Shown here: piece by piece, positions 5,141-16,233 of the stretch
Numbering within the stretch: position 1 is the stretch's first letter
How the letters are laid out: each line of letters begins with the position of its first letter
Assembly (NCBI GenBank): GCA_965229885.1
Contig: CBDDJX010000002.1
Coordinates: forward strand, 423,945 to 487,944
Direction of reading: 5' to 3'
Length of the DNA: 64,000 nt
Source: Vicinamibacterales bacterium
Lineage (GTDB): Bacteria; Acidobacteriota; Vicinamibacteria; Vicinamibacterales; CAVVIG01
Notes under the pieces: model-generated
Databases searched by the model: none
Seen by the model: only the letters and a program-made list of their open reading frames with translations
What the model was told of the DNA's origin: nothing
Translations under genes and position numbers: made by a program

Positions 5141-5830
5141 TTAGTGGGGCTGATCCCCGAGGTGATGCCGCACATCGCGCGCGGAGACGATGAAAATCAC
5201 GTCCTCCGCGATGTTGGTCGCGTGATCGCCGATGCGCTCGAGATGGCGGGAAATGAGGATGAGATCGAGCGCCGGCTCGATGGTGGACTGGTCCTGAAGC
5301 ATGTAGGTGAGCAGTTCGCGGAAGATCTGCGTCTTCAAGGCGTCGAGCTTGTCGTCCTCGTCCAGCACCTGCTGGGCGAGATCGGCGTCGAGCCGCACGA
5401 AGGCGTCGAGCGAGTCGCGGAGCATCGTCTGCGCGATGGTGGCCATCAGCGGGATGTCGATCAGCCGCTTCACGGCCTGGTGCTCCGCGTACCGCCGGGC
5501 CGCCTCGGCAATGTTCACTGCCAGGTCGCCAACCCGCTCCAGATCCGTATTGATCTTCACGGCCGCCACGATCGTGCGGAGGTCGGCCGCCATGGGTTGG
5601 TGGAGCGCCAGCAGCGTGAAGCAGCGGCTGTCGATCTCGACGTGCAGCGAGTTGAGCGGCCCATCGCCGTGCAACACGCGCTCGATGAGCGCGTTGTCGC
5701 GTTCCACGAGGCCCCTGATCGAGAGGCGCACTTCCTCCTCGGCGAGGCCGCCCATCTCGAGCAGACGGGCCTTGCACTGCTCGAGCTCTTCGCGAAAGTG
5801 CGGCACGACGTGCTCTCCGGATCCCGTCAT
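5141..5830 (-). CDS. phoU: Phosphate signalling protein PhoU
   Basis: QPMAADLR, DLERVGD, HLERIGDHATNIAE; follows pstB. Confidence 0.95.
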   Translation of the reverse strand: MTGSGEHVVPHFREELEQCKARLLEMGGLAEEEVRLSIRGLVERDNALIERVLHGDGPLNSLHVEIDSRCFTLLALHQPMAADLRTIVAAVKINTDLERVGDLAVNIAEAARRYAEHQAVKRLIDIPLMATIAQTMLRDSLDAFVRLDADLAQQVLDEDDKLDALKTQIFRELLTYMLQDQSTIEPALDLILISRHLERIGDHATNIAEDVIFIVSARDVRHHLGDQPH

Positions 5831-5869
5831 TGTCCTTATTCTTCTCTTTCTCTTTTCTTGCGCTGGCGC

Positions 5870-6721
<852 letters not shown>

Positions 6722-6722
6722 G

Positions 6723-7544
6723 CTATCCTCCGGGGATTTCCGGCGCGTTACGGCTGTGTAAAATCCGTGTAACGGCAGGCACCGCTTCCGCCGGCTCCAG
6801 AAACGCTTCAACCTGCTTACGCAGTTCGTCCTGAATGCGATCGACCCTCCGCCTGGCGTCGAGGACTCGAAAGTGGAACTCGTCGGCCATTGAGGCGTAC
6901 TCGCGAAGCAACCGCTGTTGATACGTGCGGAAACTTTCGTAGATGTCGTCGCCGGTCTTCAGATCCATTCCAGATTCCCAGAAGTCCATCCCGCGCGATT
7001 CGAGGACGCGACCGATGAGCTTGTCGACGTCGATCTTGAGGTAGAAGACCATATGCGGCGTAATCGCGAACCCGTACAGGTTCCTCAGCCACTGGCGGTC
7101 GATGCCGCGCACGCCGGCGCGCGCCAGCGCCGTGAAGATGTACCGATCCGACAGGACGATGAACCCGGCCTTGAGCGCCGGAATGATTTCCTTTTCCAGC
7201 CGGTCGGCGAAGTCCGTGGCGTAGAGCAGGACGAAGGTCAGCTTATTGAGCGTGTTGCTCGATTTCGCCAGCTCGATCGTCGGCTGCATCAACGGCGATC
7301 GCGTCCATCCGGTTTCGACGACGCCGTAGCCCTTGACCTCCAGCCACTCGCGCAGCAGCTGAATCTGCGTGCTGCGTCCGACGCCATCCGTGCCTTCGAT
7401 GGCGATGAGCTTGCCGGGGTAGCCATCAATCGGCAGATATGGAACGCCCCGGCCGTAGTACCGGCCGGGCTGGATGCCGAGGTTGGCGGCCCCTTCATTG
7501 CGTCCCCCGGGGCGATCTTCGTCGAGATCAGACGGGCTCGTCAT
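6723..7544 (-). CDS. Thymidylate-kinase-like protein, paralog B, altered P-loop
   Basis: [13 protein letters not shown] (K->R), LSDRY, WESGMDL. Confidence 0.85.
6745..6773 (-). promoter_or_regulatory. Putative Pho box (three units, 11-bp period)
   Basis: Minus strand GTTACAC-ggat-TTTACAC-agcc-GTAACGC just upstream of pstB start. Confidence 0.6.
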
Positions 7545-8226
7545 CGCTCATCTCCGAAAGCTTGGTCTCGATGTGTTTCGCGGCGCGCGAGCGCACGACA
7601 CGCTGCTGCTCGGTGATGCTGCCGACGGCGTTGACCACCTCGAGACCATATTCGTCCACGAGCCTGTCATATTCTTCGAGCACCTTGCCCTGGAACAGGC
7701 GGAAGCTGTCCGCGGGATTCGTGCTCCAGCCCAGATCCATGCCCGCCTCATAGAACTTGAGCTTCACGCGCCGTGCCATCAGACGGTCGAGCGATACATC
7801 AATCGGGACGCGGAAGTAGAGCGTCAGATCGGGCCGCACTGCGAAGCTGTAGAGCTCGCGCACCCATTGCCGATCAACGCCCCGCGTCGCGTCGCGGGCG
7901 AAGGCCGTGTAGGCGTACCGGTCCGCGAGCACGATCATGCCCGCCTTGAGCGGCGGGATGATCTTGTACAGCAGGCGATCAGCGAAGTCGGTGGCGTGCA
8001 GCAGGCTGAACGTCATCGGAGTCAGTGCGTTCTTCTTCTTTCCCGTCTTGGTGGCCGCCTTGACCAGGGCGGATGAGTTCCATTCCGTGACGAAGACCCG
8101 ATGCCCGCCGGCGCTCAGCCACTTCGCCAGCAGCCCGAGCTGCGTCGTCTTGCCCGAGCCGTCGATCCCTTCGACGACGAACAGCCTTCCCGGGTACTCG
8201 TGAGGTGTCGTCAGGTTGTTCAGCAT
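7528..8226 (-). CDS. Thymidylate-kinase-like protein, paralog A
   Basis: VVEGIDGSGKTT, LADRY, YEAGMDL; no canonical TREPG motif. Confidence 0.87.
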   Translation of the reverse strand: MLNNLTTPHEYPGRLFVVEGIDGSGKTTQLGLLAKWLSAGGHRVFVTEWNSSALVKAATKTGKKKNALTPMTFSLLHATDFADRLLYKIIPPLKAGMIVLADRYAYTAFARDATRGVDRQWVRELYSFAVRPDLTLYFRVPIDVSLDRLMARRVKLKFYEAGMDLGWSTNPADSFRLFQGKVLEEYDRLVDEYGLEVVNAVGSITEQQRVVRSRAAKHIETKLSEMSDDEPV

Positions 8227-9769
8227 ATGTGTGCCCGCCGATCTCGACCCGCAGCGGTTTGCCGATCATCCGCTCGAAGGGCGCCGCGTGCCGCGCGGCC
8301 GCCCACAACTCGAGCTCGGCGTCGCCGCTCGCGCGGACCTGTAACAGAGCGTCTTCGCCGCGGTTGTGCAGCTCGATGCCCGAGAGGCTCTGGGAGTGGC
8401 TGCGATCGAGGCTTTCCGCCAGCCGGAGGATCGCGGCGAGCGTCCGCACGGTCTGGCGTCGCTTCCGCGGCAGGTGCGCGTACTCCTCGTGGTGGTTCTT
8501 CGGCGTCGCGCGCCGATGGTATCGCGCAACGAGCGCGATGGCATCGACCTCCTCGGGCTCGAATCCGCGCAGGTCGCCGTTCTTGATCAAGTAGTACGAG
8601 TGCTTGTGATGGCCCTCGTAGCTGATATGCACGCCGATGTCGTGGAGCAGCGCGGCGTACTCGAGCCACTCACGCTCCCGGTCGGTCAACCCGTGCACGG
8701 CGCGGGTCTCCGCGAACATCGCCATGGCGAGGCGCGCGACCTGGGTCGCGTGCTCGGGCCAGTAGTTGCACCGTTCCGCCAGCTCGACGACGCTGCGGCG
8801 GCGGATGTCAGGATAGCGATCGGCCTGCGCAATCTCTTTTCGGTGCCGCGCGATATAGTCGAGCACGAGCCCCTCGCGCAGCGACATGTCGCAGAGGGTG
8901 ATGTCGTCGGCGCCGAGGCGCCGGACCATCGCGTCGAGCAGCACCGCACCCGCCACCGATAGATCGGCGCGGCGCGGCTCGAGGCCCGGCACGCGCAGCC
9001 GTTTGTCCAGGCTGAGCTCCACCAGCTGCTTCTTGACGCGGCGCAACGCCTTGGCGGACACGCGCCGGTTGCGCAGCGTTGGGCCCGTCGATCGGCCCTG
9101 AAGGCCGGTGGCGATGCCGCCCAGGCTCAGGATCGTCCCGGATGTTCCGATGACGCGGTCGAATCCCGCGTGCGCAATCTCGTCGAGGAATTCACCCGCT
9201 TCGGCGTCGATGTGCTTGACCAGTTTCCGTTCGTCGCGCGGGACCAGCGGATCGCTCTTCACGAATCGCTCCGTGAGACGAATCACGCCGAGCTTGAAGC
9301 TCCGGCCCATGTCAACGTTCGACCCGACGCCGCGCGTGATTTCGACGCTGCCGCCGCCGATATCGACGACCACGATCGCTTCCGATGCGCTCCCGATGCC
9401 GTAGACCGCGGCTAGGTGGATGAGCCGGGCTTCCTCCGTTCCCGCGATGACACGCGCGCGGATGCCTGTCTGTTGCATGACCGCGTGGAGAAACTCGCCG
9501 CCGTTTTCGGCTTCCCGGACCGCGCTGGTCGCCACCGCAATGATCTTGTCGACGCGGTGCGATTCAGCCAGGCGGCGAAATTTCGACAGCACCTGAAGCG
9601 CGGCGTGCATGACCTCGGGCGTGAGCGCACGCCCGTCCAGGCCGCCGGCGCCGAGGCGCACCATCTCTTTCTCGCGGTCGATGATTTCGAACGACAGATC
9701 CGGCCGCACCCGCACGACGATCATGTGCAGAGAGTTGGTGCCGATGTCGATGGCAGCAATGCGCATCAT
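7979..9769 (-). CDS. ppx: Ppx/GppA exopolyphosphatase with HD domain
   Basis: AAIDIGTNS, ATSAVREAEN, EEARL, DIGGGSVE, LREG, LLHDIG, LAESLDRSH; last 248 nt overlap next gene. Confidence 0.92.
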   Translation of the reverse strand: MMRIAAIDIGTNSLHMIVVRVRPDLSFEIIDREKEMVRLGAGGLDGRALTPEVMHAALQVLSKFRRLAESHRVDKIIAVATSAVREAENGGEFLHAVMQQTGIRARVIAGTEEARLIHLAAVYGIGSASEAIVVVDIGGGSVEITRGVGSNVDMGRSFKLGVIRLTERFVKSDPLVPRDERKLVKHIDAEAGEFLDEIAHAGFDRVIGTSGTILSLGGIATGLQGRSTGPTLRNRRVSAKALRRVKKQLVELSLDKRLRVPGLEPRRADLSVAGAVLLDAMVRRLGADDITLCDMSLREGLVLDYIARHRKEIAQADRYPDIRRRSVVELAERCNYWPEHATQVARLAMAMFAETRAVHGLTDREREWLEYAALLHDIGVHISYEGHHKHSYYLIKNGDLRGFEPEEVDAIALVARYHRRATPKNHHEEYAHLPRKRRQTVRTLAAILRLAESLDRSHSQSLSGIELHNRGEDALLQVRASGDAELELWAAARHAAPFERMIGKPLRVEIGGHTYAEQPDDTSRVPGKAVRRRRDRRLGQDDAARAAGEVAERRRASGLRHGMELIRPGQGGHQDGKEEERTDSDDVQPAARHRLR

Positions 9770-9842: not shown

Positions 9843-10778
9843 ATGCCCCGTTCCGCCGGACCTTACGACCTGCTTCGCCCACGCCTCGAGCGATTTACGC
9901 GGATGTTACATGGCGTTGAAGAAGGCGATGTCCGGGCGCTGCACCGCGCGCGGGTCGCGTCGCGGCGTCTCCGCGAGGTGCTTCCCGTACTCAAGCTCGA
10001 TCCGGAGCTCGCACAGAAGCTCGGCCGTCGGCTGCGAAAAATCACGGAGCGGCTCGGAACGGTGCGCGAGTTCGACGTACTGCTTGGTGTGATTGACGAA
10101 CTGAACGCGACTGGACGTTACCCGAACGCGGCGCTGGTGCGCGTTGCCGCCGGCATCGGCGACGATCGGAGTCATGTGCGGGAGCGCCTGCTCGCAAAGG
10201 TACCCATCCACGAACTGCGGCGCGTCGCGGCCCGGCTGGAGAAGACGGCTCGGGCGGTCGAACAGGATGCCGCCCCGTTTGGTCCCGGGACCGCACGACG
10301 CTCGTGGCGATGGGCCATCGATGCGCGCGTCGCGCGGCGCGCGTCAACGCTCGCCGCCGCCGTGTCTGACGCCGGTGCCGCCTATCTCGCCGAGCGCCTC
10401 CACGCTGTGCGCATAGCGGTCAAGAAACTGCGGTACGCCCTCGAACTCGCCACCGAGGCGGCGGCGGGCGTCAGGTCGAGTCAAGATCTCGTGCAGCTCC
10501 GCCGTACGCAGGGCGTACTGGGACGGATGCGCGATCTACAGGTACTGATCGATCGTGCGCGCGACGTCCAGGCGGCGTTGACACCGCCAAGCCTCACCGC
10601 CTGGCGGGAGCTCGATGGGCTCGTGGTGGCGCTCGAAGAGGACTGCCGGCGCCTTCACGGCCGATATATGCACGGCCGGGACGCGCTGCTGGCTGTGTGC
10701 GCTCCGCTCTCCGGACATCACGAACACGAACACGAAGTCAGAAGTCAGAAGGTTAGAGTGACAAGGACGTCCGCGTGA
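9843..10778 (+). CDS. CHAD domain protein (polyphosphate-binding family)
   Basis: LHRARVASRRLR, LGTVREFDV, LHAVRIAVKKLRYALE, LGRMRD. Confidence 0.9.
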   Translation: MPRSAGPYDLLRPRLERFTRMLHGVEEGDVRALHRARVASRRLREVLPVLKLDPELAQKLGRRLRKITERLGTVREFDVLLGVIDELNATGRYPNAALVRVAAGIGDDRSHVRERLLAKVPIHELRRVAARLEKTARAVEQDAAPFGPGTARRSWRWAIDARVARRASTLAAAVSDAGAAYLAERLHAVRIAVKKLRYALELATEAAAGVRSSQDLVQLRRTQGVLGRMRDLQVLIDRARDVQAALTPPSLTAWRELDGLVVALEEDCRRLHGRYMHGRDALLAVCAPLSGHHEHEHEVRSQKVRVTRTSA

Positions 10779-11272
10779 CGGAGCTCTATTTGATTCGCCA
10801 TGGCGTCGCCGAAGAGCGGGGCGAGGCGTGGCCCGACGATACAAAACGGCCGCTGACCGAGGACGGGATGTCGAAGCTGCGCAAGACCGCGCGTGCGCTG
10901 GAGTGCCTCGGCGTCACGCTCGATGTCATCGTGACGAGCCCGCTTGTCCGCACGCGGCAGACCGCCGAGATGATCGCCGGTGGGCTCGAGCCCCATCCAC
11001 CCGTCGTAACGGCGGATTCGCTGGCGCCAGGGGGAACCGTCGCGGCCCTGCTGTCGGATCTCGAGAAGTACGCCAAGCGCGAGCGCATCGCGCTCGTCGG
11101 TCACGAGCCGGGGATCGGCGAGCTGGCCGCCCGACTCGTCGGCACGCGGCATCCGATTCCGTTCAAGAAGGGCGCGGTCTGCCGCATCGACGTCGAAGAG
11201 CTGCCGCCGGTCGGCCCGGGGGATCTCCGTTGGTTCCTCACGCCGAAGATTATGAGGAGCATACGTCGGTAA
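10775..11272 (+). CDS. sixA: Phosphohistidine phosphatase SixA
   Basis: LIRHG, RPLT, SPLVRTRQTA, LVGHEP. Confidence 0.9.
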   Translation: MTELYLIRHGVAEERGEAWPDDTKRPLTEDGMSKLRKTARALECLGVTLDVIVTSPLVRTRQTAEMIAGGLEPHPPVVTADSLAPGGTVAALLSDLEKYAKRERIALVGHEPGIGELAARLVGTRHPIPFKKGAVCRIDVEELPPVGPGDLRWFLTPKIMRSIRR

Positions 11273-11275
11273 GGC

Positions 11276-11707
11276 TTAGCACCTCAGATAATCCCCCTGC
11301 CAGCTCTTCACGCGTTCCTTGATCGCCTTCGTCGCGAGGCTGCCGGCCAGAACCTCACGCACCAGTCCTGGTAGCTCATCGTCGGCGGCGAACCGGAGCG
11401 CGACAAGCTGCTGCGGGGTCAGTTCGGGAATCCGGCCATGCAGGTCAGAGGGCAGGACCTCCTTCAGCCGATGCCGCATTTCGAGTCGAATCACTCGATC
11501 CTGAACCGTGAGCGTCATGGTGCGCGCGAGGACGCCGAGCGTGAGCAGCGCGGCCGCCACCACGACCGTCCATGCGGTGCTTCTCGAGGGCGCCAGATAG
11601 GCATGGCGAATGGTGTTCAAGACGTTGATCAACAGTACGGGGAGAACGAAGAAGTGGAACGGAGGAAGCAGGCGAAAGTGGTTCTTGAGGGTCTGCGTTT
11701 GCGGCAT
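11276..11707 (-). CDS. Small membrane protein (DUF6526-like)
   Basis: QDRVIRLEMR, QLVALRFAADDEL, IKERVKSWQGDYLR; GGAG RBS. Confidence 0.75.
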   Translation of the reverse strand: MPQTQTLKNHFRLLPPFHFFVLPVLLINVLNTIRHAYLAPSRSTAWTVVVAAALLTLGVLARTMTLTVQDRVIRLEMRHRLKEVLPSDLHGRIPELTPQQLVALRFAADDELPGLVREVLAGSLATKAIKERVKSWQGDYLRC

Positions 11708-12069: not shown

Positions 12070-12153
12070 GTGGGCGACTCACGTCGGACATACCTCGTCG
12101 CTACCGTGGAAGCACGATGCTCCCTGGGCCCTTCCCGGGAGAAGGAGGCTTTC

Positions 12154-13317
12154 TTGCGACGAGTCCTTGTTTCCGCGGTCATCCTGATCGCCTTGACTGC
12201 CACGGCGTCAGCCCAGCAGGCCGACAGCCCGACCGCCGCTCAAGCAGCGCAAGCTTCGAGCAATAATAAAAAGGGGCAATCAACCTACGACAAGATCTGG
12301 AAGTTCGCCGAGTGGTACGAAAACGACTCACATCCCGTTGTCCAGCGAGTGTTGTTCAGTGGGCGATACCAGCACGAGTACGCAGCGATCGATGCTGATG
12401 AAGGGGACCTCAGCGAGTGGAACGTCCGTCGCATGCGGCTTGGCCCGAGAGTGACGCTATTCCGCACGTTCACACTTCATGGCGAAGTTGAGCTCAATCC
12501 AGAGGAAGCGGACCCGTTCTACGTGCGCCTTACGGACATGTACGTGCAGTGGAGCAAAAGCGGCACATTCGTGCTGACGGTTGGGAAGCACGGCGTCCCG
12601 TTCACGATGGACGGGTCGACTTCCTCCAAGGAGCTCCTCGCGATCGACCGAAGCAACCTGAGCAACAACATCTGGTTTCCCCAGGAGTACGTTCCGGGCG
12701 TCAGCGTTTCGGGCAGGCTCGCGCCGTGGGTCTATCGAGCAGGCGTCTACTCGGCAGGCGAAGCCAGCCGCGAATTCGGCGAGTTCAACGGCGGCGTCTT
12801 CACCCTCGGCGTCCTCGGCTACGATTTTGCGCAATCGCTCGGAGTGAAGGAAGCGTTGCTGGCTGGCAACTACGTATGTCAGCATCCGGATCCTCAGAAC
12901 ACCTTCACGCGACAGCTGGAGCACATTGTCTCCGTCAATTTCAAAATCCAGGCCGACACGTGGGGGATGCGAACGGATGTTTCGGCTGCGTCGGGGTATC
13001 TGGATCAGAGCGATCTTTGGGGCTTGATGGCCATGCCCTTTGTCAAGGCCACCGACAAGCTCGAGTTCGTCGGTCGCTACACATTCCTTGCCAGTGATGA
13101 CACGAATGGCGTCCGCCTCGCGACGTACGAAAGCCGGCTGGTCTCAGGCCGCGGCGACCGCTACAACGAGCTGTATCTCGGCGCCAACTACTACTTCTAC
13201 GGCCACAAGCTCAAACTGCAAAGCGGCGTTCAGTTCGCCGACATGAACGGTCGCGCCGCCGACGACGGCGCCTATTCGGGCGTTTCGTGGACAACAGGCT
13301 TGCGCGTCGGCTGGTAA
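12154..13317 (+). CDS. Phosphate-selective porin, OprO/OprP-like
   Basis: Signal peptide, VRRMRLG, alternating beta strands, LGANYYF, terminal Trp; AGGAGG before TTG; upstream of pstS. Confidence 0.82.
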   Translation: MRRVLVSAVILIALTATASAQQADSPTAAQAAQASSNNKKGQSTYDKIWKFAEWYENDSHPVVQRVLFSGRYQHEYAAIDADEGDLSEWNVRRMRLGPRVTLFRTFTLHGEVELNPEEADPFYVRLTDMYVQWSKSGTFVLTVGKHGVPFTMDGSTSSKELLAIDRSNLSNNIWFPQEYVPGVSVSGRLAPWVYRAGVYSAGEASREFGEFNGGVFTLGVLGYDFAQSLGVKEALLAGNYVCQHPDPQNTFTRQLEHIVSVNFKIQADTWGMRTDVSAASGYLDQSDLWGLMAMPFVKATDKLEFVGRYTFLASDDTNGVRLATYESRLVSGRGDRYNELYLGANYYFYGHKLKLQSGVQFADMNGRAADDGAYSGVSWTTGLRVGW

Positions 13318-13365
13318 GGCGTCTGCTCCACGCGCTACTGTAGAACTTGGCAAAAGAGGAAACCT

Positions 13366-14412
13366 ATGACATCGATTCGAACGCTCATCGCGGCTATCGC
13401 GTGCACAACCGTCGCCGGTTGCAGTGGTGGCAATCAACAGTCTGAGCAGCAGAACACGATCCAGATCAACGGAGCGGGCGCGACCTTTCCCTTTCCGATC
13501 TACTCAAAGTGGTTCGACGAGTATCACAAGCGGCATCCGAACGTGCAGATCAACTACCAGTCGGTTGGATCTGGCGCCGGCATCCGTCAGCTCGTGAACC
13601 AGACGGTGTTCTTCGGCGCGACCGACGGACCGATGACCGACGAGCAACTCACATCCGCGCCCGGCCCGATTTTGCATTTGCCGGCCGTCCTGGGTGCGGT
13701 CGTACCCGTGTACAAGATCCCGAACCTCGACGCTGAGCTGAAGTTCAACGGCGCGGTGCTGGCGGATATCTTTCTCGGCAAGATCACGAAGTGGAACGAT
13801 CCCGCTCTGGCCAAGCTGAACGCCGGCGTCACGCTGCCGAATACCGACATCACCGTCGTTCACCGGTCCGACGGTTCGGGCACGACGTACATCTGGGTCG
13901 ACTATCTGGCGAAGGTGTCGCCCGAATGGAAGATGCAGGTCGGGGTCGGCACCTCTCCGAACTGGCCGGTCGGCGTCGGCGGCAAGGGCAACGAGGGCGT
14001 CGCCGGTCTGGTGACGCAGTTGCCAGGGTCGATCGGCTACGTCGAGCTGATCTACGCGCTGCAGACTAAGATCAGTTACGGCCGCGTGGAAAACATGGCC
14101 GGCGAATTCGTCAAGGCTTCCGTCGAGTCGGTGACGGCCGCCGCCGCCGCTGCCGCGCCCACCATGCCGGTGGATTTCCGCGTGTCGATGACGAACGCAG
14201 CGGGCCCGGGCGTCTACCCGATCGCGTCGTTCACGTGGCTTCTGTTTTACGAGGACCCGCAGGACAAAGCGCAGGCGAAGGCGATGGCGGACTTCATGAA
14301 TTGGGCCCTCAGCGACGGCCAGAAGTACTGCGCGGAGCTTGGGTACGCGCCGCTTCCGGCCAGGATCGTCCAGCTCGAGTTGGCCGCGGTCGAGAAGATC
14401 AAAGTCAGTTAG
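13366..14412 (+). CDS. pstS: Phosphate-binding lipoprotein
   Basis: Lipobox VAGC; GAGATFP, YQSVGSGAG, HRSDGSGTT, GKGNEGV. Confidence 0.96.
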   Translation: MTSIRTLIAAIACTTVAGCSGGNQQSEQQNTIQINGAGATFPFPIYSKWFDEYHKRHPNVQINYQSVGSGAGIRQLVNQTVFFGATDGPMTDEQLTSAPGPILHLPAVLGAVVPVYKIPNLDAELKFNGAVLADIFLGKITKWNDPALAKLNAGVTLPNTDITVVHRSDGSGTTYIWVDYLAKVSPEWKMQVGVGTSPNWPVGVGGKGNEGVAGLVTQLPGSIGYVELIYALQTKISYGRVENMAGEFVKASVESVTAAAAAAAPTMPVDFRVSMTNAAGPGVYPIASFTWLLFYEDPQDKAQAKAMADFMNWALSDGQKYCAELGYAPLPARIVQLELAAVEKIKVS

Positions 14413-14417
14413 TCTAT

Positions 14418-14456
14418 GCGGGAAGGGCTGGATGGGCTGGAAGCGCGGGATGGGCC
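14418..14456 (+). repeat. G-rich 9-mer repeat, also present inside dnaE2
   Basis: GCGGGAAGGGCTGGATGGGCTGGA versus 30937-30960 GCGGGAAGGGCGGGATGGGCAGGA. Confidence 0.6.
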
Positions 14457-15397
14457 GTAGCGGCGACGCCGGGTTCCGGATGGGGACCGGTGTGTTCGCG
14501 CTTGCGCTCGTCCTGATCGTTCTCGCCATCGGCTTCGAGTTGTCGCGGCAGTCGATGGAATCGATTCAGAAGTTCGGCCTGGACTTCTGGCGGACCTCGA
14601 CTTGGGATCCGGTCGCCGGCGAGTTCGGGGCGCTGCCGTTCATCTGGGGCACGCTGTATTCGTCCATCCTCGCCCTCGTCATCGCGACTCCTGTCTCGCT
14701 CGGCATCGCGATCTTCACTTCCGAATTGTGTCCAGGCTGGCTCAGGCAGCCGCTCGTCTTTCTGACGGAGCTGCTCGCCGCCATTCCTTCAATCGTCTAC
14801 GGTCTCTGGGGCATCTTCGTGATGGTGCCCGCTGTGCGATCGTTTGAAGTGGCGGTACCGGACTGGCTGCGGCGGACACCGTTTTTCAGCGGCCCGCCGC
14901 TCGGCGTCGGCATGCTCGCCGCAGCAGTGATTCTCGCGATCATGGTCATCCCGTTCACGTCGTCGGTGGCGCGCGAGGTCCTCAAGTCGGTACCGCTCGC
15001 CCAGCGCGAAGGCGCGTACGCGCTCGGCGCCACGCGCTTCGAGGCCATTCGCGCGGCGCTCTTCTGCGCGCGCACCGGCATCATCGGCGCCATCATGCTC
15101 GGCTTCGGGCGCGCGCTCGGGGAGACGATGGCCGTCACGATGGTGATCGGGAACAATCCGCAGGTATCGGCGTCGCTCTTCGCGCCGCAGTACACGATGG
15201 CGGCTGTCGTCGCCAACGAATTCACTGAAGCGGCGGACGATCTCTACCTGTCGGCTCTGGTCGAAATCGGCCTCGTCCTCTTCATCATTACCCTCATCGT
15301 GAATGCGCTGTCCCGCCTGCTGATTTGGAGTATGGCCCGGCCCGGCAAGCCTCGTATGGCCGCATCGGTGGTGCCCGCCGAGGGGTCGGCAGCATGA
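14450..15397 (+). CDS. pstC: Phosphate ABC transporter permease
   Basis: ELLAAIPSIVYGLWG, GRALGETMAVTMVIGN; start approximate. Confidence 0.95.
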   Translation: MGRSGDAGFRMGTGVFALALVLIVLAIGFELSRQSMESIQKFGLDFWRTSTWDPVAGEFGALPFIWGTLYSSILALVIATPVSLGIAIFTSELCPGWLRQPLVFLTELLAAIPSIVYGLWGIFVMVPAVRSFEVAVPDWLRRTPFFSGPPLGVGMLAAAVILAIMVIPFTSSVAREVLKSVPLAQREGAYALGATRFEAIRAALFCARTGIIGAIMLGFGRALGETMAVTMVIGNNPQVSASLFAPQYTMAAVVANEFTEAADDLYLSALVEIGLVLFIITLIVNALSRLLIWSMARPGKPRMAASVVPAEGSAA

Positions 15398-16233
15398 ACG
15401 CCCGGAAGGTGACGTCCGCTCTATTTGTCGGGTTCTGCGGCCTGTCGGTGCTCGTCGCGCTCGTACCGCTCGCGTTCGTGTTGTTCTTCGTCGTCAGCCA
15501 GGGCATCCAGGCGGTCAATGTCGATTTCTTCACACAGATGCCGAAGCCGGTCGGCGAACCCGGTGGCGGCATGGCCAACGCCATCGTCGGCACGCTCCTT
15601 GTGACGTCGCTCGGATCGCTAATGGCGATACCTATTGGAGTCATGAGCGGCGTGTATATGTCTGAATACGCCGGCACGCGTCTCTCAAGCGCCGTGCGGT
15701 TTGCCGCGGACGCCTTGAACGGCGTGCCGTCGATCGTGATCGGTGTGTTCGTCTACGGGATTGCCGTGCTGCCGTTCAAGCAATTCAGCGCGCTGGCCGG
15801 CGGCGTCGCACTCGGCATCATGATGATTCCGATCATCGCGCGCACGACCGAAGAGCTGCTGCTGCTCGTCCCCAATACGATGCGAGAGGGTGCGCTCGCG
15901 CTCGGCGCGACGCGCGCGCGCGCCGTCTTCACCGTCGTAGTACCAGCGGCGCTGCCCGGCATCATCACGGGGATCGTGCTCGCCCTGGCGCGCATTGCGG
16001 GCGAGACCGCACCGCTCCTCTTTACGTCATTCAACAATCGCTTCTTTACGACGAGCCTGCGTCAGCCAATCGCGACGCTCACCGTGCAGATCTACACCTA
16101 CGCCATCTCCCCGTACGAGGATTGGCACCGGCAGGCGTGGGCCGGCGCGCTTGTGCTTGTCACGATCGTGCTCTGTTGTTCGCTGCTCGCACGCCTTGCC
16201 ACACGGCGCATCGAGGGCCTCCGCGGCCAGTAG
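15394..16233 (+). CDS. pstA: Phosphate ABC transporter permease
   Basis: GVPSIVIG, ARIAGETAPLLFT, AWAGALVL; ATGA overlap with pstC. Confidence 0.95.
   Translation: MNARKVTSALFVGFCGLSVLVALVPLAFVLFFVVSQGIQAVNVDFFTQMPKPVGEPGGGMANAIVGTLLVTSLGSLMAIPIGVMSGVYMSEYAGTRLSSAVRFAADALNGVPSIVIGVFVYGIAVLPFKQFSALAGGVALGIMMIPIIARTTEELLLLVPNTMREGALALGATRARAVFTVVVPAALPGIITGIVLALARIAGETAPLLFTSFNNRFFTTSLRQPIATLTVQIYTYAISPYEDWHRQAWAGALVLVTIVLCCSLLARLATRRIEGLRGQ

Follow-up and report, generated by a model that had tools for sequence, protein, structure and literature searches.

A putative PPK3-type polyphosphate kinase pair whose partner subunit keeps the DRY motif, in a Vicinamibacterales ppx and pstB-phoU locus

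PPK3, a polyphosphate (polyP) kinase built from two subunits with the thymidylate kinase (TMK) fold, has been described from Sulfolobus acidocaldarius (PMC12995831, J Biol Chem, February 2026; preprint 10.1101/2024.08.28.610084). Its genes are two annotated dTMP kinases in an operon with ppx, sixA and CHAD genes (PMC12995831). Saci_2019 is the catalytic subunit (cPPK3) and Saci_2020 the second subunit (rPPK3), and the complex is alpha2beta2. Saci_2020 is inactive alone, which is attributed to its having lost the DRX arginine and the basic cleft, and it raises activity about 6- to 10-fold. The reaction is reversible and favours ATP formation from polyP and ADP, and the Sulfolobus proteins formed no dTDP (PMC12995831). 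S. tokodaii STK_15430 (PDB 5h70) is named as a cPPK3 homologue in the same paper; this protein, ST1543, was first described as an unusual thymidylate kinase (10.1101/2024.08.28.610084). CHAD domains bind polyP (PMC6537752).

PPK3 is placed inside the dTMPK superfamily, apart from PPK2, and most PPK3 genomes are said to have neither PPK1 nor PPK2 (PMC12995831). PPK2 enzymes (PF03976), notably those of the two-domain class II, are also P-loop polyP kinases; in the two-domain form the inactive domain oligomerises the active one, a comparison made in PMC12995831. Bacterial PPK3 members are predicted (PMC12995831), and Acidobacteriota are mentioned in the preprint (10.1101/2024.08.28.610084); the accessible text of the two reports gives no activity for any bacterial PPK3. 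In the portion of the PMC12995831 table that covers 31,788 of 47,545 genomes, five Chloracidobacterium rows are PPK3-positive and two Luteitalea genomes score 0. Among the results listed by literature searches on PPK3 subunits there was no further paper beyond PMC12995831 and its preprint.

The window, a stretch of 64,000 nucleotides of Vicinamibacterales DNA, carries two adjacent TMK-fold genes, here called A and B, among genes of polyP and phosphate metabolism:

5141..5830, minus strand: phoU (PF01895, E 1e-48)
5870..6712, minus strand: pstB-type ABC ATPase (PF00005)
7544-6723, minus strand: gene B, putative regulatory PPK3 subunit of the rPPK3 clade, 273 aa (PF02223, E 3e-23)
8226-7528, minus strand: gene A, putative cPPK3, 232 aa (PF02223, E 1e-23)
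7979..9769, minus strand: ppx, Ppx/GppA-family exopolyphosphatase with an HD domain (PF02541, PF21447, PF01966)
9843..10778, plus strand: CHAD-domain protein, divergent from ppx (PF05235, E 5e-30)
10775..11272, plus strand: SixA phosphohistidine phosphatase (TIGR00249, above cut-off)
11276-11707, beyond CHAD-sixA: DUF6526 gene (profile match)

Profile matches within the window give the gene order ppx-A-B-pstB-phoU on the minus strand, with CHAD-sixA divergent on the plus strand. The reading frames of A and B share 17 bases. The preliminary description of this DNA had reported just such a layout, an overlapping pair of TMK-fold paralogues between ppx and pstB-phoU and opposite CHAD-sixA, and both the coordinates and the PF02223 matches agree with it. 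The name pstB was given from the gene's own sequence and its place before phoU, the profile match itself being to PF00005; its likely start is the ATG at 6712, 10 bases past the stop of B, while the listed frame runs from 6811. The pst system lies in two parts, with pstB-phoU (5141-6712) following the kinase pair on the minus strand, and a phosphate-porin gene (a profile match) together with pstS, pstC and pstA-like genes (assigned by inspection) at 12070-16233 on the plus strand, beyond CHAD-sixA. A promoter scan of the gap between ppx and the CHAD gene found nothing.

No stop ends the ppx frame ahead of gene A, and the frame continues 248 bases into that gene (7979-8226); ppx/A overlaps of 113-305 bases are present in 66 of 71 scorable loci. 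A functional Ppx tail within the overlap was considered and rejected, as synonymous sites carry no extra constraint (values at four-fold sites of 0.51 and 0.48 inside, against 0.45 and 0.47 outside). Because of this, the tail is probably unselected read-through. The overlap could couple translation of the two genes.

Of 225 confirmed loci, the best 80 were used to follow conservation, some of them cut by contig ends; these 80 loci are kin and are therefore not independent. Record titles are Acidobacteriota or Vicinamibacterales in 79 of these best 80, and the locus titled Bifidobacterium (L064), with 80-84% identity and the Vicinamibacterales gene order, is probably mislabelled. Within this sample of kin, A adjoins B in 78/80 loci, and linkage to polyP genes is conserved, with ppx present in 78/80, CHAD in 77/80 and sixA in 74/80. 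A pstB gene follows B in 70 of the best 80 (one is a weak ABC-ATPase match) and phoU lies no more than 5 kb away in 60; pstC/pstA-like genes stand between B and pstB in four. The majority-residue share is about the same for the two proteins, 0.898 for B and 0.890 for A. Given this conservation across loci, the A/B pattern is not due to chance.

The PDB entry best matched by both A and B in phmmer searches is S. tokodaii ST1543/STK_15430 (2plr/5h70), with E-values of 3e-56 (A) and 7e-45 (B); the best true TMK gave 6e-15 (A) and 3e-14 (B). AlphaFold2 models of the two proteins (pLDDT 91.8 for A and 88.2 for B) both returned the eight chains of ST1543 as Foldseek ranks 1-8. For A the Foldseek TM-scores were 0.83/0.92 with 46% identity, and by query length the values were 0.83 for A and 0.71 for B. 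ST1543 was deposited as a dTMP kinase (PDB 2plr, 4nzy, 4rzx, 5h70) and its structure was solved without a partner subunit. It shares TEWNSS, KKK, HATDF, TAYARD and EAG-D stretches with A, and B differs from it at the Walker A motif, the Lys patch and the HATDF histidine. The motifs of A and B that bear on function are located as follows:

8146..8169, minus strand: Walker A of A, GIDGSGKT, residues 20-27, with Lys26
8029..8049, minus strand: Lys patch of A, KTGKKK at 60-65 (patch residues 60-66)
7371..7394, minus strand: Walker A of B, GTDGVGRS, residues 51-58, with Arg57 replacing Lys
7140..7148, minus strand: DRY of B, residues 133-135, intact

The two P-loops, the Lys patch of A and the Lys-to-Arg change of B had all been pointed out in the preliminary description, as had the lack of TREPG and a shared [YW]E[AS]GMDL motif; each is present in the sequence as described. 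At the position of TREPG, A has TEWNSS and B has TGWTRS, and the shared motif reads YEAGMDL in A and WESGMDL in B. Over 210 residues the two proteins are 42% identical. The Walker A Lys of A is kept in 77/77 readable P-loops of the best 80 of 225 loci, and the Arg of B, whose conservation had also been in question, is found in 80/80 of the same sample, as is its DRY. A and the Saccharolobus cPPK3-type proteins have in common the Walker A Lys, DRY, TEWNSS, the Lys patch and HATDF, and TEWNSS, KKK, HATDF and TA-ARD stretches link A to the archaeal catalytic subunits. The KKK of the Lys patch, present at the equivalent place in ST1543 and the Saccharolobus proteins and missing from B, makes the patch a candidate part of a positively charged polyP cleft. 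B and the archaeal partner subunits are alike in being without the Lys patch, TEWNSS and the HATDF histidine (His-to-Tyr).

Canonical Tmk (PF02223, TIGR00041) has the fold and both the Walker A and DRX motifs in common with A and B. It differs from them in sequence (20-27% identity, from a comparison with three TMK rows), in the thymidine-site stretches, which are replaced in A and B, and in the lid, which is longer in A and B and carries the EAG/ESG-MDL stretch. When aligned with the TMK of T. thermophilus and with the tmk of the same genome, neither A nor B conserves the dTMP-binding residues, the EP motif among them, the residues in question being those that we take to bind dTMP and form the thymidine site. 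The TIGR00041 cut-off (83.25) is passed by A (86.5) and B (84.4), and a Sulfolobaceae-type catalytic subunit also lies above it (105.9); as a membership test this profile is uninformative, since it does not separate PPK3 from TMK.

A canonical tmk, which the preliminary description had thought worth looking for elsewhere in the genome, was found on contig C3 as a separate PF02223 gene (G000:C3:894218-894812; L001:1477-2070) scoring 113 bits with PF02223 and 101 bits with TIGR00041. It still has the stretches ANRY and SSIAY, which are gone from A and B, and, judged by its sequence, is likely the housekeeping tmk. In this gene SFPDY replaces TREPG and a Gln follows the Walker A Lys, and the TMKs of two relatives are the same in both respects. 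Loss of TREPG, taken as proof against TMK function, was rejected as sufficient: with SFPDY at that position in what is likely this genome's tmk, the loss is weak evidence by itself.

The saci_2020 primer sequence gave 0 matches in metagenomes, and Sulfolobaceae-type pairs from a motif scan stand in for Saci_2019/2020 in the comparisons. The scan, made with a catalytic-subunit motif, gave 24 loci. Seven were Sulfolobaceae-type (four distinct pairs) and 16 held pairs of other kinds, while in the last no partner was in view. Two of the four distinct pairs are Saccharolobus, named via the catalytic subunit. In these Sulfolobaceae-type loci the catalytic-type gene comes first, as A does here; ppx and sixA were matched in 7/7, and pstB and phoU gave no match within 4 kb. 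A is 40-42% identical to three of the Sulfolobaceae-type catalytic subunits and B is 26-30% identical to the partners.

A careful phylogenetic tree was built from 43 of the 69 rows collected; the 26 left out were nine additional catalytic or partner rows whose kinds were represented already, nine TMKs and eight degenerate partners of a second pair type (described below). PPK3-type proteins were split from TMKs with 100/100 support and by a long branch, the eight TMK rows all coming from this genome and its order. B falls in one clade with all partner subunits, including the four Sulfolobaceae-type ones (99/99). Because the branch of the Sulfolobaceae partners is long (2.84), they could have been drawn out of place in the tree; the branches of B-type proteins are short. 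Catalytic rows formed a grade, with 25% of bootstrap trees joining them in one clade, and in a quick tree A-type and Sulfolobaceae sequences grouped with an SH-aLRT of 80. The quick tree also put the degenerate second-type partners beside the outgroup, a placement that carries a long-branch warning. Forcing the Vicinamibacterales A and B rows together was rejected (p-AU 0.0003), which excludes a recent A+B duplication within Vicinamibacterales; the A/B split is thus old.

These results bear on the annotation found in databases, under which A and B would be redundant or broad-specificity dTMP kinases. Both proteins score above the TIGR00041 cut-off, their homologues are named 'dTMP kinase' in the sources, and ST1543 itself entered the literature as an unusual thymidylate kinase (10.1101/2024.08.28.610084), but the genome has a separate TMK, the thymidine-site stretches are replaced in both A and B, the branch away from TMKs is long and fully supported, and the Sulfolobus orthologues made no dTDP (PMC12995831). 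A pair of dTMP kinases is extremely unlikely on this evidence.

A and B are instead likely members of the known PPK3 family, with A the likely catalytic subunit (cPPK3) and B the likely regulatory one, and the pair is not a new kind of enzyme. The likeness to the S. acidocaldarius enzyme (SaPPK3) extends to two adjacent TMK-fold paralogues with ppx, sixA and CHAD as neighbours, a third and separate tmk, no PPK1 or PPK2, lost dTMP-site residues, and a basic patch on the catalytic subunit only, for which the Lys patch of A is the candidate here. There are also differences. SaPPK3 is archaeal, while the present pair is bacterial with relatives in Vicinamibacterales; CHAD-sixA is divergent and pstB-phoU follows the pair, unlike the SaPPK3 locus; B keeps the DRX arginine (DRY) where Sulfolobaceae-type partners have DGY; and many relatives of the pair also carry PPK2, and some PPK1, unlike the Sulfolobus genome. 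The preliminary description had proposed a new polyP kinase heterodimer, a catalytic and regulatory pair acting on polyP rather than housekeeping dTMP kinases. The second part fits PPK3 well by clade, motifs, the separate tmk and the neighbouring genes, but "new" has to be dropped, as PPK3 is already characterised from S. acidocaldarius and bacterial homologues, Acidobacteriota among them, were predicted (PMC12995831; 10.1101/2024.08.28.610084). "Heterodimer" agrees with the family in its two subunits and probably not in stoichiometry, the characterised enzyme being an alpha2beta2 tetramer (PMC12995831).

A 1:1 model of A with B scored 0.67, against 0.00 for the best of three controls; the score mark used is reached by 116/157 solved complexes and 2/215 mismatched pairs, counts that are only rough because own alignments were used. 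Runs agreed in at least 97% of contacts, with a partner pLDDT of at least 82. The modelled interface is formed by helices 69-87 and 116-128 of A and 100-118 and 152-159 of B, presumably the usual TMK dimer face, and the score may therefore reflect likeness to solved TMK/ST1543 dimers and not binding. The model is 1:1, whereas SaPPK3 is a tetramer.

A very probably transfers phosphate between polyP and ADP/ATP by means of its Walker A motif, DRY and basic patch, with B activating it by assembly and in a non-catalytic way. The two proteins are predicted to bind each other and to work as a family-3 polyphosphate kinase. By analogy with the Sulfolobus enzyme, the reaction of A would be reversible and favour ATP from polyP and ADP, and B would activate through oligomerisation in an alpha2beta2 assembly. 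The motifs of B suggest that what would impair it catalytically is the replacement of the Walker A Lys by Arg, together with the missing Lys patch, and not a loss of the DRX arginine. PolyP would be made at high ATP/ADP and returned as ATP at low energy charge, and as the pair would be the sole recognisable polyP kinase in this genome, both tasks would fall to it. Alongside the pair, Ppx would degrade polyP, CHAD would bind polyP, and PstB/PhoU would serve the uptake of phosphate and its control.

The state of the DRX motif sets B apart from the Sulfolobaceae-type partners. Replacement of the DRX arginine, a trait of Sulfolobus-type rPPK3 (Saci_2020, STK_15420), is absent in B; DRY is present in 12/12 readable distant partners and DGY in 7/7 Sulfolobaceae-type loci. 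A Walker A Arg was found in the partner at 16/16 readable non-Sulfolobaceae loci and at 6/7 Sulfolobaceae-type loci (3/4 distinct), a Saccharolobus pair (in L136) having a partner that keeps the Lys. On these alignments the Walker A Lys-to-Arg change is a more general mark of partners than loss of the DRX arginine, and by tree and motif B is assigned to the rPPK3 lineage but not to its DRX-less Sulfolobus type. The accessible text of PMC12995831 has no mention of a Walker A Lys-to-Arg change in the partner, although the alignment in its Fig. S14 may show it.

B keeps the arginine whose loss is held responsible for rPPK3 inactivity in PMC12995831, and it is as conserved as A; both points count against the reading of B as a non-catalytic activator. 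A polyP kinase in which B has a catalytic role of its own (e.g., AMP to ADP), or lends residues to a shared site, would account for this conservation, for the DRY in 80/80 loci (best 80 of 225) and 12/12 readable distant partners, and for B-type branches that are short beside the 2.84 of the DRX-less Sulfolobaceae partners. Such a role for B is nevertheless improbable: the Walker A Lys is replaced in 80/80 of the same best 80 loci, the Lys patch, TEWNSS and the HATDF histidine are lost as in the Sulfolobaceae partners, and the Sulfolobus partner of the same clade is inactive alone (PMC12995831). A broader proposal, held only tentatively and on balance doubted, is that the widespread B-type subunit binds nucleotide and serves as an allosteric switch, or as a second active site, and so decides which way polyP flux runs; Arg for Lys in Walker A, an intact DRX arginine and conservation equal to that of A are the reasons for considering nucleotide binding. 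An allosteric site in B is compatible with the PPK3 assignment given above. If B is a nucleotide switch, the Sulfolobus enzyme, with its more decayed partner, would represent a derived state, and regulation by nucleotide would apply to most PPK3s.

No match to PPK1 (PF13090) or PPK2 (PF03976) was found in the whole genome (95.8% complete), and neither A nor B matches PF03976; an absence first noted for the window thus extends to the genome. A survey of relatives covered 41 genomes, kin and several of them incomplete, of which 25 carry a window-type A and 16 do not; several of the latter carry the second pair type or fragments. Among the 25, PPK2 was matched in 21, PPK1 in eight and neither in four, this genome being one of the four, and among the 16, PPK1 was matched in nine and PPK2 in 11. 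Mutual exclusion of PPK3 with PPK1/PPK2 is not seen in these counts (8/25 vs 9/16 for PPK1, 21/25 vs 11/16 for PPK2). PPK3 in this order therefore usually coexists with another polyP kinase, in contrast to PMC12995831, where most PPK3 genomes are stated to lack both. Two relatives have a PPK1 match about 9-15 kb from A (G005:C14, A at 502030 and PPK1 at 517357; G021:C12, A at 913342 and PPK1 at 904154).

The frequent presence of PPK2 (21/25 genomes with the pair), taken with pstB after B in 70/80 and phoU within 5 kb in 60/80 of the best 80 of 225 loci, would suit a pair that mainly senses polyP or a nucleotide in order to regulate PhoU/PstB or Ppx and carries out little phosphoryl transfer. 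This is highly unlikely, as none of the catalytic motifs of the active archaeal subunit is missing from A, 4/25 genomes (this one included) have no other PPK match, and neither pstB nor phoU is matched within 4 kb at Sulfolobaceae-type loci. Read as a PPK3, the pair fills a gap, being the candidate polyP kinase of a genome that has ppx and CHAD and no PPK1/PPK2 match.

The kind of system was already known. With DRY intact in the partner, the way in which the second subunit activates the first can be tested directly. PPK3 would also be extended to a Vicinamibacterales family, represented among the rows listed in the PMC12995831 table only by the two Luteitalea genomes, both 0. Thousands of such 'dTMP kinase' entries are probably PPK3 subunits, and their annotation would need correction. 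A non-thermophilic homologue could be an easier PPK3 to assay and is a candidate ATP-regeneration enzyme.

Six entries of the protein collection that appeared to be natural single-chain A-B fusions (P0003, P0004, P0006, P0007, P0034 and P0051; 389-469 aa) are probable assembly artefacts and were set aside. All are single-member clusters, and most show deletions or linkers that resemble junk or frameshifts, the junction of P0034 being cleaner. The second, unlinked TMK-fold pair is absent from this genome and occurs in 14/40 relatives (L105-L118; e.g., L105:5075-6425, L111:4868-6219, L113:4968-6387). Its first gene encodes a catalytic-type subunit with 41-45% likeness to A; the partner that comes next, in loci where it can be seen, is strongly degenerate, the Walker A Lys being absent and DRY replaced by APY or the like. 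Within about 5 kb of this pair there is no match to ppx, CHAD or sixA. In a scan of 15 ORFs of two loci, its neighbours included, in L111, a CotH kinase and a phosphate porin and, in L113, a PLD-domain gene.
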